Assembly (NCBI RefSeq): GCF_028641065.1
Contig: NC_073389.1
Location: 8,804,001-8,868,000, forward strand
Direction: 5' to 3'
Origin: Leucoraja erinacea
Lineage: Eukaryota
Length of the DNA stretch: 64,000 nucleotides
A program made the position numbers and the translations under genes. The stretch's first letter is position 1. Each line of letters starts with the position of its first letter. Under the pieces are notes generated by a model. The model worked only from the letters and a program-made list of their open reading frames with translations, searched no databases and was not told where the DNA came from. Below are positions 3,274-55,283 of the stretch, piece after piece.

Positions 3274-3549
3274 TTATAACCAAAGATGTCCATCTTATCT
3301 AGTTCTGAGGTATAGACTGTCTGATGGAGATTCCATTCCTTGATCTATTCTTCCTTTAAAATTCATACGAGGTAATATTGAGCAAGAAATATCAGTTTGG
3401 TTTATCAAAGACTCTCCCATCTGTGTACACGTAAGGATGAACTTGGTTTATTAACAAACAGAGAAAGTCAGATTTTGTTTCCATCCTCTAGCCTTTGCTT
3501 TTCCCCCACAGAGGTAGTTTTAAGCACCATCAGTTTCTGAAGTCTGAAC

Positions 3550-3670
3550 ACTCTGAAGAAGGGTCTCGACCCGGAACATCACCCATTCCTTCACTCCAGA
3601 GATGCTGCCTGTCCCGCTGAGTCACTCCAGCATTGTATATCTATCTTCGGTGTAACCCAGCATCAGTTTC
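3550..3670 (+). mobile_element. Penelope-like pLTR fragment
   Basis: ctgaagaagggtctcgaccc...gatgctgcctgtcccgctgag...ccagcatc. Confidence 0.7.
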
Positions 3671-24066: not shown

Positions 24067-24876
24067 TGCCTTGGAAGCCTTACCCCATTACTCAAACCTC
24101 ACGTCAAAAACCTTGGCGTGCTATATTGGACTCAGCATTGAAATTTGACAAACAAGTCAATGCTGTGGTAAAAGCTAGCTTCTTCCAGCTTCGGACGATA
24201 GCTAAAATAAAACAATTCCTCCAGTTTGATGACCTCGAAAAGATCATCCACATATTTATCTCCTCCCGCCTTGATTACTGCAACTCCCTTTACACTGGCA
24301 TCAGCCAATCTTCCCTGTCCCGCATGCAACTGGCCCAAAACGCCACAGCGAGACTCCTGACGGGCACCCGAAAAAGGGACCACATCACCCCGATCCTGGC
24401 CTCTCTCCACTGGCTCCCTGTGCGGTTCCGAATAAATTTCAAGATCTTTCCTTATGTTTACAAAGCCCTTAACGGGCTTGCCCCCACCTACATCAAAAGT
24501 CTTCTCACCCACCACACCACCTCCATGTCCCTCAGATCGGCCGACTTGGGGTTACGAAACATCCCGCGGTCTAGGCATAAGCTCGGGCGACTGCGCCTTT
24601 GCGGTTGCAGCTCCTAGACTATGGAACAGCATCCCTCTTCCCATTAGAACTGCCCCCTCCATCGACTCCTTTAAGTTGAGACTTAAAACTCATCTTTACT
24701 CTCAAGCCTTTCTTGACGTCCTCTGAGGGAGGGCTGTATGTATATATGTATGTATTTAAACTATGAACAACTGTATAACATTAGTACCTCCACCAATGTA
24801 AAGCACTTTGGCAAAGGAGAGTTGTTTATTAAATGTGCTATAGAAATAAAAGTGACTTGACCTGACTTGACTTGAC
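24067..24876 (+). mobile_element. L2-clade LINE 3' fragment, well preserved
   Basis: KNLGV, SRLDYCNSL, HITPILASLHWLPV, AFAVAAPRLWNSIP, FKLRLKTHL; tail tgtaaagcactttgg...tgtgctatagaaataaa(gactt)n. Confidence 0.92.
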
Positions 24877-27600: not shown

Positions 27601-28476
27601 TTGTTCCAGCAGAGATGGATTGGTACCCGAGGCTATGAATTCAGGGTAATACAACCTGAAGGAGGGCAAGTGGAGAAACATGTTTCAGCGATATATTAAA
27701 AAAAACACAATTGCTGCAGTTTCTCGGCAAGTCAGGCAGCATCTCTGGAGAAAATGGATAGGTGACATTTCAGACTGGGTCAGCAACCTGAAGTGTCACA
27801 TGTCCATGTCCTTCAGATATGCTCCCTCATTCGTGGAGTTACTCCAGAACTTTTCTTTGGTAAACCAGCATCTGTAGTTCCTTGTTTTTCCTTTGCTCCA
27901 TGTGATGAACGAAATTTCGTTCAGACCGAAAGTTCTGAATGACAATGGAGGCTACTTTACTTTACTGATGTGAACTATCCAAACATTGATGGAAGTAGGT
28001 TTAATAATAACTTTCATATCCAATGATGTGATTACTATCCCCCCAACAGTGAATGGAAGACCTAGGTTTAATAATAGATAGCTTTTCATATCCAAAATCT
28101 GAATTGGTAGGATACATATATACAATAAAACTGTCCCCCACCACAGTGAGTCCAGAGTCTCCTCACTGGCAAAGACCGTCTCTTCCCTCCTCTTCTCCCT
28201 CTGCGCAACAGCATTGATATGCAGAGGGATCTTGGGGTCAACGTCCAAGTTAAATAAAGCATTCAGGATATTTTTCCCAGGGTGGAAATGTCTCGATGGC
28301 ATAACTTCAAGTCTCTTGAGGGGCAAAGTATAAAGCAGATGTGAGGGGCAAGTGTTTTTATACACAGAATATGGTGGGTACCTGGAATGCACTATCATGA
28401 TGGCGAAGGAGGCAGATATAATTGGGGCATTTAAGAGGATTTTAAACAGATATGCAAGGAAAGGAAAATGTATCAT

Positions 28477-30134: not shown

Positions 30135-31198
30135 AGGGCCTGTCCCACTTCGGTGTCATTTGCGCGTAATTTACGTGACATCATTTAGCATCACGATACA
30201 CGATGCGCGCGTCTTGCCGCGCACGTGATGAACGCATGGTGCGCATTACGCGTGCATGGTGACGTAGGCATGATCACGCGGGCGCCCCAGAATTTTGGGA
30301 TGTACAAAATCTTCATGCACCATCTGCGTAATACTGAAGGGGGCGCAGACCTGTGTGGTATGGCTGCCCAGCCTGCAGCTGTTCGTTTTTCACTCTTTTT
30401 TTTATTTTTAGTGAGTTTTAGTGTTTTGTTTTTGGAGTTTTTGGAGTTCTAGTCTTTTTTATGTGGGGGGTTGAGGGGGGGGGAGGGGGAAACTACTTTT
30501 CAGGGTCCCTACCTGGTCGGAGAGGCAGCTTTTCTCCGGGCTGCACCTTCGACCCATCCTCGCGGCCTACCAGCGGGCCTGGAGCGGCGTTTCCTGAGGG
30601 GACTGCCCAAAACCTCGGCTTCGGCGGCGGCACAGTGCTGGAGCGGGTCGCCGTGCTGGAGCACCGGTGAGCTGAGACCGCCAAGAAAAACATTGTGGAG
30701 CTGCGGGTCTATGGAGCAGCCAGCTGCGGCGCTGAACTTTAACATCGGGAGCCTGGGATCTCTCGCTGAGATCGTCAGTGGTGGAGCTCCATCCAGCGCG
30801 GCCTTGTTGGCTTCGGAAGCTGCGGTCTCCAGTAAGGAAGCCGGGCTTTTCCAGGCATCGCAAGTCACTGAGAGGGTTCTCCCGACGTCGGAGCACCATC
30901 ACCCGGCGTGAACGGCCTGGAACATCGGGCCTCCATAAAGGCGACTGCGGAGGCCTCAATAGGCCCGACTATGGGTGGACATGGGATGGGGACTGGACAT
31001 TGTGCCTTCCCTCATAATGGGAACTATTGTGAGGGGATGCATTTTAAGTTTAAATCTCTTTACTATTGTTATGTCTGTATTCTTGTTTTTAAGTGCTGCA
31101 TTGGCAAGGAGCATTTCACTGCACCGATGGTGTATGTGACCAATAAAAAACCTTTAAACCTTTGAACACGCAAATGACGCCCAAGTGGGTCAGGCCCT
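30135..31198. mobile_element. PIF/Harbinger-type MITE, subfamily D, split by an insertion of about 830 bp
   Basis: agggcctgtcccactt...aagtgggtcaggccct; the uninterrupted relative is at 54114-54366. Confidence 0.8.
30334..31166 (+). mobile_element. GC/CpG-rich non-autonomous retroelement with Rex/Babar-like 3' tail
   Basis: Nested in a MITE; starts ctgaagggggcgc...atggctgcc and ends atttcactgcacc...gtgtatgtgaccaataaa with short tail repeats. Confidence 0.7.
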
Positions 31199-46414: not shown

Positions 46415-46862
46415 GTACCACCAGGGGGCGCCGGACGATGGCTGCCTCACCAATGGTCTGTCTCGTCTTTTTCCTTCTTGTGTTTTTAGGAGGAACCCGC
46501 AGTCTCGGGTAGAAACCGATGTCGGGAAGCTCCAAGCCACACGAGGTTGGACCAGCCCCGACCCGGGGTCCGCGGGGGGGGAGCTGAGATCACCCCGATT
46601 CGGGAGTTTGATCGCCCCGATGCGGAAGATCGCCCCGACAATGGAAGGTTCAAATGCCTCGACCGAGGGAGAACAAAGAAGGGAAGAAGATTGAACGTTT
46701 TTTACCTTCCATCTCAATGGGAAATGTAGGGGAGTCGCTGTGGTGGATGTTCATGGTAAAAATGTACTTGGGTGTCTTGTTGCTTTTTATTGGTATGACT
46801 GTATGGCAAATAAAATTCCTCGTATGTTGCAAAACATACTTGGCTAATAAAGTAGTATTATC
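46415..46862 (+). mobile_element. GC/CpG-rich non-autonomous retroelement with Rex/Babar-like tail (internally shorter copy)
   Basis: Head ccaccagggggcgcc...gatggctgcc, the shared hairpin module, and tail aaattcctcgtatgttgcaaaacatacttggctaataaag. Confidence 0.65.
46418..46432 (+). promoter_or_regulatory. Consensus-matching CTCF core motif
   Basis: CCACCAGGGGGCGCC; motif match only, no binding data. Confidence 0.45.
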
Positions 46863-47436: not shown

Positions 47437-48167
47437 GGGTGGCACACAAAGGCAGAGTTGTTGCCTTACAGCGCCAGAGACCTGGGGTTGATCCTGACTA
47501 CGGGTGCTGTCTGTACAGGGTTTGGACGTTCTCCCAGTGACCTGCATGGGTTTTCTCCAGGATCTCCTGATTCCTCCCACACATCAGGAGGTGCAACTCT
47601 AGAGCCAATAAGATCATGGGAGACCCCTTCCACCCCTGCAACAGACTGTTCCAGCTGCTACGTTCAGGCAAACGCCTCCGTTGCCATGCTGTGAGAAGGG
47701 AGAGGTTGAGAAGGAGTTTCTTCCTAGAGCCATTAGGACTGTAAACTCCTATCTCACCAGGGACTAACTTTACTGTACCACTCCACTGCTTTAAAAAAAA
47801 AATTAATTGCTGTTTTTTTTTGTTTTTTTCCCTTTTCCTTCCGCCCACAATATTTAATATGTAAAAGAATATGTGATTCTGTATTCCATTCTGTTTGTAG
47901 TTTGATTGGTTGTTTGTTTGTTTGTCTTTTGCACAAAGTCCGTGAGCATTGCCACTTTTCATTTCACTGCACATCTCGTATGTGTATGTGACGAATAAAC
48001 CTGGCTTGACTCTAAAGACGCACAGGTTTGTAGGTTAATTGCCTTGGTATAATTGTGAAAATTTGCCCTAGTGTGTATCATAGTGTAAGTATGCAGGGAT
48101 TGCTGGTTGGCACGGACTCGTTGGGCTGAAGGATACATGCTGTGTCCATAAAATGAACTAAACTAAA
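47437..48167 (+). mobile_element. HE1/V-SINE interrupted by a Rex1/Babar 3' fragment (about 47584-48010)
   Basis: The SINE breaks at cctcccacac and resumes at tctaaagacg; the insert reads ...LLRSGKRLR... and ends atttcactgcacatctcgtatgtgtatgtgacgaataaa. Confidence 0.8.
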
Positions 48168-52470: not shown

Positions 52471-54113
52471 TGGGACGACAGATAGCACAATGGGCTAAGA
52501 GTTCGGCTGGCGACTAGAAGGTAGCCGGGCCTGTTTCCGTGCTTGGAGTGGTTATACTGTCGAATGGTGTCCTTGGGCAAGACTTAGTTCACCCACCTTT
52601 GTACCTGTAATGGAAAAGCTACGGCGGCAGGCGCGGGCACGGAAATACGCCCATGATGTCTCCCTTTCAAGAAAGATAGATACAAAATAAGGCATTTCGT
52701 TGTCTCTGTACTGTACAGCCAGACAATGACAATAAATTGAATCATCAGGGTTTCCAAAGAATTTGAAGTTTTCAGGACATCTCTCTGTTGTGGTAGGATG
52801 TCATTGAAAAGCTGGGGTAAAAAGCTGTGCCTGAATATTGACGTCCTGCAGTTTCATCACTCTATACCTTTGTCTTGCTGACATATTAAGACCATAATTG
52901 CCAGGTTTGAGCTCGTCCTTGTAAGGCCCTTGTCGAGACTAGCACAAAATGCAAGCGGAGAACACGTTGCGTGATCTTGTGGGTATGATTTATTCGCCCC
53001 TAAGGAGGGACACTTCTTTCAAGGTCACCTGCTCAATACGAGGGTCAAAGCCCTTTATATTAAAGGGGCACAGGCATTTACATATACATCACATCTCCCC
53101 CTTTATTTTAATTACAATTCTCCCCCTTCCCTTAAATTACCTCACTATCTCCTTTGTCTTGCTGACATATTAAACCATAATGATCATATTTCTTAAAATG
53201 ACTCATTTATATTATTTATTTCCTGGTAAAACCCCTGTGTAGCATCTTGGGATGTTTTTCATGAAATGCATTGTAAACTGTTGTTCGTTTTGTGTTGTGA
53301 GAGAATTTTTACTTTTGCTGTAGTAGAGTTCACTTGATTTGTTTGGCACACATTTGTTACAGTTGATTCTACTTTTTAATTTCATCAGTTAGCCATTTCA
53401 ATAAGCAGAATTAAAGACGTATACGATCAGAATGGCACAGCTGGTAGAGTGGCCGTCTCTTAGCTCCAGTAACTCAGGTTTAATCCTAGTGTTGGCTACT
53501 GTCTAGATGCAGTATGCATGTTGTCACTGTGACGACATGGGTTTTGTTTACATGTTCTTAATTACACAAATAAGGGTGTTGAAAAGCTAATTGGCCACTG
53601 TAAATTGCCCTTGGTGTGCATGTGAGTGGTGCAATCAAGATGGAGCTGATGGGGATCAGCGTTTATGGGTACAGAATGGGCTGAACGTTTATTGTGCTGT
53701 ATCCCTTTTATGATCCTGAATGAGCCATCACCTATCTTGATCGATGAAACCAGTGCAACATGTCGTAGAGCTCAATGCAATGCTGTGTGTTATTGATTTA
53801 GTACCAGTTCCTATTGGGCATTCATCCAATGAATCATCAGATGAAGCCCAAACATCTTTTCTCCTGATTTTGACCGATCAGCAAATTGTCAGTGAATTAG
53901 CCATCTTATATTCAACCGCCATTACAAAATATATGGTTGTTTCAGTATTAATGGGAGTTATAACATTCACAACCAATTAGCCTGTAAAAAATAATGTGCT
54001 GCAGGAATTTACCAGGCCAAGCAGCATCTGTGGAGGTTAAGGATAGATGACCCTTCTGCAGTCTATTCCCCCCGCAGAAGCTGCCTGATTTGCTGAGTTC
54101 CTCCAGCTCTTAA

Positions 54114-54366
54114 AGGGCCTGTCCCACTTGACCGTCATTTGCGCCTAATTTACTCGACATAATTTACGCATCACAACGCACGACACGCGCATCGTGACAT
54201 GCACGTGATGTGCGCAGGTGCGCATTACGCGCATATGGTGCGTGGTGACATAGGCAGTGATGCGTGGTCGCGCGCGGCATCCCAGGATTTTGTGTTGTAC
54301 AAAATCTTTGTGCGCCATTCGTCGCGTGCTGTGACGCACAAATGATGTCCAAGTGGGACAGACCCT
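54114..54366. mobile_element. PIF/Harbinger-type MITE, subfamily D
   Basis: TAA|agggcctgtcccacttg...caagtgggacagaccct|TTA. Confidence 0.85.
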
Positions 54367-55283
54367 TTATTTTTTACTCATGATTCCAGCAACTGCAGTT
54401 TCTCCTGTCTCCATTATAACGTAATCTGTACTTTTAAACAAATATTTAGTTTTCCCTATCTACACCTAATAGAGAAAATAAATTAGGTGACATCTTATAT
54501 TTGTGGAACTAATATTCTATCTGGCAAGGTAAACACAAACAGCTGGAGTAACTCAGCGGGTCAGACAGCAGCATCTCTGGAGAGAAGGAATAGGTGACGT
54601 TTCGGATCAAGAGCCGTCTTCAGATTGGGATAGATTCTGCAGGGCACCAATGATGAAAGCTGGTTATGTGGCTAATTTACAGCTCACCATCTGCTATCTA
54701 ATGAATGACTTTCATAATGTCTCTAAAAACGGAGCCACCACGGCAATGATAACTAATTGAGAAATCGTGGGCGATAATCTAGAGACTAAAAATCACAAGA
54801 ATATGAATAAACATTTGTTGATAGTTGCAGTCAATTTTTAAAGGCACATATGCTTGGAAAATAACGTGCAATGACTTGAAAGAGACAGAATGAATGGGAG
54901 AGTAGGTTACACCGCTGGATACTAATGTTCAAGCACTTAACATGCCGCTCTGCAGAAACACAAACTTATTTATATTGGAGGCTTCAAATAGCGGTGGGAG
55001 TAATTTCAGACCAACAAGTTAAATGGTTTTATATTATTAGCCCAACAACATCACATTATTACCTACAGTATGCGTTTTGGTAGGGAGATGAATTGTAGCC
55101 AAAGAGGTTTAATAAGTTTGGAGGTCTCTGGATGCTTTCAGTACAGATTAATATCTGAGGCCTTTAAGACTTTGCACATGCATTAATACTGCGCCCCATT
55201 CATTCAGAGCATGGATTATACACTCTGTAGGCTTCAGAAAGCAAAATAATCAATTCCACGCAACTAATCTGTGTGCAATGTTA

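Follow-up and report, generated by a model that had tools for sequence, protein, structure and literature searches.

The element at positions 30338 to 31166 of a 64,000-nucleotide stretch of the Leucoraja erinacea genome (contig NC_073389.1, positions 8,804,001 to 8,868,000, forward strand; hereafter the window) is best read, with a probability of about three in four, as a non-autonomous retroposon, for which transcription through RNA polymerase II (Pol II) is likely, that arose from the ends of Rex1 long interspersed elements (LINEs) around a foreign GC-rich body and that swaps tails. An original prediction, made from the sequence alone, had described it as a Pol II-type parasite of Rex/Babar LINEs resembling a short interspersed element (SINE). 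That description stands in that the element is non-coding, independently amplified, and without an RNA polymerase III (Pol III) head, and it is refined in that the element belongs to a superfamily in which families A, A2, and their kin carry a Rex1-derived head and some members carry L2 tails. These elements likely borrow the copying enzymes of Rex1 and L2 retrotransposons.

A superfamily amplified as its own unit

Read from its sequence, the focal element runs from 30338 to 31165 or 31166 on the + strand and is a full-length family-B copy, 88% identical to the family-B consensus over positions 1-851 of the latter, with homology stopping at both ends. The extent first proposed, 30334 to 31166, was right at its end and wrong at its start, where four nucleotides belong to a miniature inverted-repeat transposable element (MITE). 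The predicted head, T-rich tract, G-run, GC body, hairpin, AATAAA, and microsatellite tail were all found, each on the + strand. The head, AGGGGGCGC..ATGGCTGCC (30338-30385), aligns with the Rex1-like heads of sister families and holds half of the CTCF consensus and a 5-nt YY1 core. It is followed by the T-rich tract and G-run (30386-30492), with several runs of at least four T of the Pol III-stopping type, and, after the G-run, by a 5′ hairpin region (30495-30550) that is present in most families, where the consensus folds, and is weak in the focal copy (z -1.25). The GC- and CpG-rich body (30551-31002) has no LINE or Pfam similarity, and the consensus body has a GC fraction of 0.68 and a CpG observed/expected ratio of 1.02. 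The 3′ part comprises the superfamily-defining hairpin, of the TGCCTTCC..CACTGTG..GGATG type (31003-31040; z -4.99, 0 of 200 shuffles), and a tail (31112-31166; fold z -2.07) made of a Rex1-type 3′ stem-loop, AATAAA (31142-31147), and (CCTTTGA)n.

A 17-mer common to the families has 19,997 exact matches in the 2.19 Gb of genome searched, and a control had none. First-look candidates, which are not copy numbers, amounted to 6,882 for B, 5,262 for C, and 3,496 for A; the best of the other B copies are 79-88% identical over most of the unit, and the best 40 A candidates reach at least 94% identity. Homology among copies ends sharply on both sides, and the median length from head to AATAAA in complete copies is 833 nt in A (n=15), 813 nt in B (n=48), and 716 nt in C (n=14), within a unit size of 0.7-0.9 kb across families. 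Clustering of 184 motif-bearing stretches gave at least eight families (A, A2, the B group, C, D, E, F, G, and an L2-tailed pair). Six consensus sequences, 49-84% identical, have one common layout: head, T-rich tract, G-run, 5′ hairpin, GC body, purine tract, conserved hairpin, T-rich stretch, 3′ stem-loop, AATAAA, and microsatellite. Divergence from consensus outside CpG sites is 1.6% in A (a set of best hits, hence biased young), 5.9% in B, and 12.4% in C, which suggests that these families amplified in successive waves. Copy number, sharp ends, and heads and tails tied to element sequence indicate amplification as a unit of its own. No target-site duplications were found in the complete copies of A (15), B (48), and C (14), with means of 4.3, 4.3, and 3.9 nt against null values of 3.9, 4.1, and 4.0 nt.

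The element is not a LINE untranslated region (UTR). All 30 of the B heads examined (the first 30 of 65 exact matches) run on into B sequence, and of the CTCF-type heads (the first 30 of 152) 29 run into C-type sequence and none straight into an open reading frame (ORF). Among the first 30 of 249 exact matches to the B tail, 28 have further B sequence upstream, two are tail only, and none is the natural end of a LINE ORF. That the element might simply be the UTR of an autonomous LINE had been raised with the original prediction; the sampled heads and tails lead to the element and not to an ORF. Two of these 30 tails have a Rex1 ORF upstream on their own strand. Rex1 ORFs directly upstream of some B tails, considered as the partner LINE, proved to be nested insertions (loci L241 and L224 by reading, L262 from coordinates). 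Insertion of Rex1 and family B into one another recurs, in the AT-rich 3′ region of the host copy (L241, L224, L262, and L190). A rare autonomous LINE from outside the sample, of which the units would be UTR pieces, is very unlikely. Only the first 30 matches per pattern were examined and the protein probes were Rex1, CR1, L2, and Penelope pieces, which leaves such a LINE some room, but the head-to-tail distance is 0.6-1.0 kb in 77 complete copies, there are at least eight families with their own tails and ages, and the core consensus sequences are without LINE protein similarity.

The predicted absence of a recognizable protein was confirmed by both searches made: Pfam gave no match in the four frames of the focal element tested, and tblastn of the consensus cores against the Rex1, CR1, L2, and Penelope pieces gave none either, so that no endonuclease-reverse transcriptase ORF was found in these frames and pieces. 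The same holds for the predicted absence of a tRNA-like or Pol III head. ARAGORN found no tRNA gene in eight loci, Rfam returned only unrelated sub-threshold matches with none at gathering level, and a scan with A- and B-box patterns, which detected both Pol III boxes in a control SINE of the window, found no A box within the initial 200 nt of the A, B, or C consensus, where T-runs begin from about position 47. A resemblance of family C to U1 and another of the hairpin to U14 were dropped, as Rfam gave no such matches. An ordinary Pol III SINE with an unrecognized small-RNA head is highly improbable. It would share with SINE superfamilies the LINE tail, the conserved central domain, and the tail exchange, and passages of PMC5786205 and PMC7245038 report SINEs with GC-rich heads of obscure origin, yet there is no tRNA or Rfam match, T-runs occur in the first 150 nt without an A box near the start, and the A-type head matches Rex1. 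The AATAAA near the end and the promoter-like 5′ half would suit a solo long terminal repeat or a DNA-transposon derivative, but this identity is largely refuted and has next to no probability: TG..CA ends are absent from the consensus, there is no target-site duplication, the microsatellite tails vary, and 5′-truncated copies occur.

Heads related to Rex1 in some families

Rex1 is abundant and largely intact in this genome. Among 150 listed endonuclease matches, 39 lie in frames of at least 960 amino acids, in several families, and many Rex1 lineages are thus potentially active. Full-length Rex1 copies start with (CCA)AGATGGCGGCGC..GCAGCGGC, and their 3′ end is formed by a stem-loop, ATGACAATAAA, and a microsatellite. 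The start pattern has 239 exact matches, the first 30 of which comprise 21 Rex1 ORF copies (three internally deleted), four tiny copies that join a Rex1 head to a Rex1-type tail at differing junctions, and five superfamily members. Both ends are kept without most or all of the middle in seven of 25 head-bearing Rex1-type loci (L358, L365, L368, L369; L357, L366, L373), suggesting frequent capture of the 5′ end when Rex1 inserts.

A comparison of the head with a Rex/Babar 5′ end had been proposed with the original prediction. Against 24 Rex1 heads, those of A and A2 scored 103 and 93, where the shuffle maxima were 81 and 79, beating 200 of 200 shuffles. The heads of six families align with one another, those of B, C, D, and F aligning with the A-type heads, and in this alignment AGGGGGCGC and ATGGCTGCC lie opposite the GGCGGCGC and GCAGCGGC boxes of Rex1, respectively. 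One full-length L2 copy (L443), its start about 4.0 kb upstream of the tail in its own orientation, also begins with AAAATGGCGGCGGC, which means that Rex1 is not recognizable by its first ten bases alone. PMC11602158 describes a YY1 core for L1 promoters that is also present in the Rex1 start, and a YY1-type start may be common to the LINEs of the skate genome.

The spreading of architectural-protein sites, which had also been predicted, holds as a sequence motif only and for C-type heads. There are 152 exact CCACCAGGGGGCGC..ATGGC heads, and 29 of the 30 examined are C-type; the C head agrees with the CTCF consensus core given in bioRxiv 10.1101/024620. The full consensus occurs in C-type heads only, and the claim fails for the focal head, since B starts at AGGGGGCGC without the CCACC half.

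Tails exchanged between Rex1 and L2 types

The predicted resemblance of the focal tail to a Rex1/Babar tail in the window was borne out, with 80% identity and an E value of 0.001 between 31112-31147 and 47960-47999. The latter belongs to a Rex1-family 3′ end (47960-48010, + strand) that lies outside the element and serves for comparison only; a near-identical tail follows a Rex1 ORF in L288, and the window piece at 47593 gave no protein match. Scored on 66 Rex1 tails against 1,440 control AATAAA windows, the tails of seven of eight families lie above the controls (p<1e-19). The 66 are those left of 69 after the removal of supposed Rex1 tails that were B tails, and element and Rex1 tails were excluded from the control. 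The C tail gave p=0.06 overall, but its best score on a Rex1 tail is 131, where the 99th percentile of the controls is 82.

Position-sampled hairpin loci, 59 in number, have a Rex1-type tail pattern in 40 cases, an L2-type in three, and neither in 16. A B-like subfamily with an L2 3′ UTR yielded 1,421 candidates. The first 30 of 3,377 matches to its L2 tail pattern follow an L2 ORF in 13 cases and a hairpin element in 11, the remaining six being short pieces, and the ORF-linked and hairpin-linked tails can be aligned over about 200 nt. This is direct evidence that tails have been exchanged between Rex1 and L2 types. Members of the L2-tailed subfamily (L374-L393, L395-L422) have the head GGGGGCGCCATCTTGG, which contains a reverse YY1-type site resembling the L1 Tf motif of mouse, and their L2 part is preceded by a second module led by ATGGC. 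The idea that this module is an L2 5′ end found no support in 20 stretches, whose sole full-length L2 starts differently. A further hairpin-bearing family (L237, L319) has a tail resembling the window L2 tail near 24790-24860.

The conserved hairpin

The original prediction placed the hairpin in all three window copies. Folding against shuffles supports it in the B copy (z -5.0) and in the A copy (z -4.1) but not in the C copy, where it has decayed (z +0.3). Across 26 distinct copies, whose loops range from 3 to about 19 nt, 98.6% of cells are paired. Both sides are altered in two pairs, giving 12 compensatory cells against 4.4 in shuffles, with the copies being related to one another. The hairpin presumably has an RNA-level role in handing the transcript to the LINE protein.

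The base arms of the hairpin are an exact complement of a 16-nt stretch of 18S rRNA near model position 410, and 13 of 20 scanned metagenome loci with that stretch are eukaryotic small-subunit rRNA. The predicted binding of the arms to 18S rRNA gains 7-9 kcal/mol, and a passage of PMC6300602 describes the U14-guided C414 in helix 14, apparently in the same area. Equally long 18S matches occur in 5-8 of 60 shuffles of the whole element, P is 0.005-0.018 per 616 nt for the hairpin alone, and the TCC/GGA part of the complementarity is already accounted for by the stem; as a signal, the 18S complementarity is weak. It is quite unlikely, though conceivable, that the superfamily is a Pol II counterpart of the SINE superfamilies in which a Rex1 5′ end became a promoter head (with a full CTCF site in C) and the hairpin would dock by its base arms on 18S rRNA near helix 14, seizing new Rex1 or L2 reverse transcriptase whichever tail is present.

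Transcription and CpG decay

Read data map to whole families, and the organisms of the read runs are not equated with that of the genome; the organism of run X22 also differs from that of X23 and X24. Words of family A occur in read runs from four organisms. In the poly(A) run X22, first mates favor a single strand by about 5-19:1 along B as far as the hairpin, beside a neighboring SINE that is balanced at 141:118; the bias corresponds to sense RNA of the element, provided that the library is of the common type. In family A the 5′ hairpin (6020:561) and the region close to the 3′ end show the same strand direction, but the mid-body does not. Single-cell reads form a sense-strand pile just before AATAAA in A (634:17 and 452:24) and, in B, a sense pile 70-140 nt upstream of AATAAA that is reversed at the tail. 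Antisense single-cell peaks behind the T-tract may be artifacts of oligo-dT priming. Transcription of the element by Pol II is likely.

Antisense-strand motifs resembling splice donors (ACTYACC on the sense strand) are present in six of seven consensus sequences (C, A, D, A2, F, and G), with none on the sense strand, and exonization in antisense introns is possible.

Consensus CpG observed/expected ratios are 0.86-1.03, with bodies at about 1. CpG transitions exceed other C/G transitions by 5.2 times in A, 3.3 times in B, and 2.1 times in C, which makes germline methylation of most copies probable. The proposal that the element spreads CpG islands is not supported by this result, as decay of CpG sites 2.1-5.2 times faster than that of other C/G sites speaks against lasting islands.

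Origin of the element

The body is without similarity to Rex1 DNA or protein, and the element is thus not a simple Rex1 deletion derivative. Under the preferred model, the ancestor would have been a head-plus-tail Rex1 derivative that gained a GC-rich middle of foreign origin, and this middle would have assumed the promoter role. Heads would then have drifted, in family C into the CTCF consensus, and tails would have been swapped by template switching. The conserved hairpin would work at the RNA level, in stability, export, or delivery to the LINE protein.

Several observations weigh against a retroposon built from Rex1 ends and transcribed by Pol II. The body does not come from Rex1, so the element is not made only of LINE 5′ and 3′ parts. 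The Rex1 tail similarity is a motif of 45-55 nt, and a Rex1 family with an identical B tail was not seen in 30 loci. Compared with the 24 Rex1 heads, those of B, C, D, and F do not score above shuffles (82 for the B head, with a shuffle maximum of 92), so the Rex1 origin of the focal head rests on its alignment to sister families. The compensatory pair count in the hairpin, two, is reached in 348 of 500 shuffles. The strand bias of A is patchy, 11:1 at the 5′ hairpin and about 1:1 in mid-body, single-cell reads switch strand between one part of B and another, and no pile of read starts appears at the head among the read positions listed.

The last of these points, with the seven of 25 internally deleted Rex1-type loci that keep both ends and superfamily copies of the same kind (46418-46862, L346, L259, and L265), would also suit an element that lacks its own promoter, is copied from read-through transcripts of the host, and keeps its head since the Rex1 protein recognizes a 5′ end at insertion. 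This alternative is unlikely: the one-strand bias runs across B beside a balanced SINE, the 5′ ends are precise, and the consensus is rich in CpG, at the ratios given above.

Relatives and surroundings in the window

Three divergent members had been proposed for the window, and their relatedness stands, with pairwise local alignment scores of 297, 195, and 270 against maxima of 175, 152, and 191 in 200 shuffles. They do not form one family, as they belong to three different families with a consensus identity of 50-59%. The family-C copy (46418-46862, + strand) has a head with the full CTCF consensus, an internal deletion of about 277 nt, and a Rex1-type tail (fold z -2.89); it begins at 46418 and not, as first placed, at 46415. 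The family-A copy (1901-2284, + strand; consensus 383-766) is 96% identical to its consensus, with its hairpin at 2215-2251 (z -4.08), and lies at the unmatched junction of an inverted duplication (1800-2433 versus 3330-3584, 87-91% identical). Nesting inside a duplication arm had been offered as evidence of mobility; this copy is cut at both ends and so is not a clean insertion. Sister family D is represented by a tail-only fragment (27908-27963, + strand; 91% over 56 nt) and by a second fragment at 28178-28206 on the - strand.

Nesting of the focal element inside a MITE was confirmed. The host MITE (30136-31197, no strand assigned) has TTAA on both flanks and is interrupted by the element, and its empty copy at 54113-54370 shows a clean site with no duplicated target. 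A terminal repeat, GGG(C/G)(C/T)TGTCCCACTT, often after TTAA, is common to several MITE families in the window, with matches at 30136-31197, 54113-54370, 13806, 35430, 48704, 55284, 55663, and 57396. These families are presumably Kolobok/T2-like.

Comparison with known systems

Rex1 makes head-plus-tail copies, which adds to the LINE sources named in the passages of PMC5786205 on this subject, and a superfamily numbering at least 20,000 copies seems to descend from it. A superfamily with a common domain, tails swapped between Rex1 and L2, and no Pol III head offers a system for studying how an RNA not made by Pol III competes in trans for the LINE protein, and for asking what a conserved retroposon domain does. 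Its heads with an exact CTCF consensus, at least 152, are candidate sites for roles in genome folding. No published description of the element was found by title or passage in the literature; subscription papers, supplements, Dfam, and Repbase were outside the search.

The closest known systems include the ORF-less bipartite LINEs. According to the relevant passages of PMC5786205, such derivatives are named only for RTE, Ingi, Vingi, and R2, Pol II transcription is expected of them, and whether the restriction reflects sampling bias is left open. The elements described here resemble those covered there (RIME/Ingi, NARTc/L1Tc, Bov-A, RTE-N, Vingi, and R2 derivatives) in having no ORF, a LINE 3′ end, likely Pol II transcription, and amplification of their own. 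The A-type families also have a LINE 5′ end, that of A, A2, and their kin being homologous to the 5′ end of the partner, Rex1. They differ in that the partner is Rex1 (and L2), about 0.7 kb is not LINE-derived, and the tail is exchangeable.

Conserved-domain SINE superfamilies (CORE, V, Deu, and Meta; in cartilaginous fishes, HE1, SacSINE1, and CmiSINE), as treated in parts of PMC5499810 and PMC3747384, likewise have an internal domain shared across families with different LINE tails, and microsatellite ends. Unlike them, the present superfamily has neither a head of the tRNA, 5S, or 7SL kind nor a Pol III layout, and its domain is a hairpin of 35-55 nt near the 3′ end. The shark SINEs described in those parts have tRNA heads and CR1-like or L2 tails. 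SINE2-5_NV, paired with Rex1-24_NV in a table of PMC3747384, shares Rex1 as a mobilizing partner but has a tRNA head. Bird SINEs on bipartite RTE, in work cited in PMC7245038, also have a GC-rich 5′ part without a small-RNA source, their mode of transcription not being shown in that source; however, their partner is RTE and their GC part lies upstream of both LINE pieces, whereas here it lies between the pieces.

Autonomous Rex1/Babar LINEs, as presented in passages of PMC6274825 and PMC13343379, the latter reporting high Rex1 coverage in rays, share the 5′ motif ATGGCGGCGC..GCAGCGGC, the 3′ stem-loop, AATAAA, and the microsatellite. The superfamily differs from them in lacking an endonuclease-reverse transcriptase ORF and in its conserved hairpin, which was not seen inside the fetched full-length Rex1 loci. 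The element thus combines the behavior of a bipartite non-autonomous LINE with that of a conserved-domain SINE superfamily, and departs from each in one defining respect, from the former by its foreign body and from the latter by having no small-RNA head.
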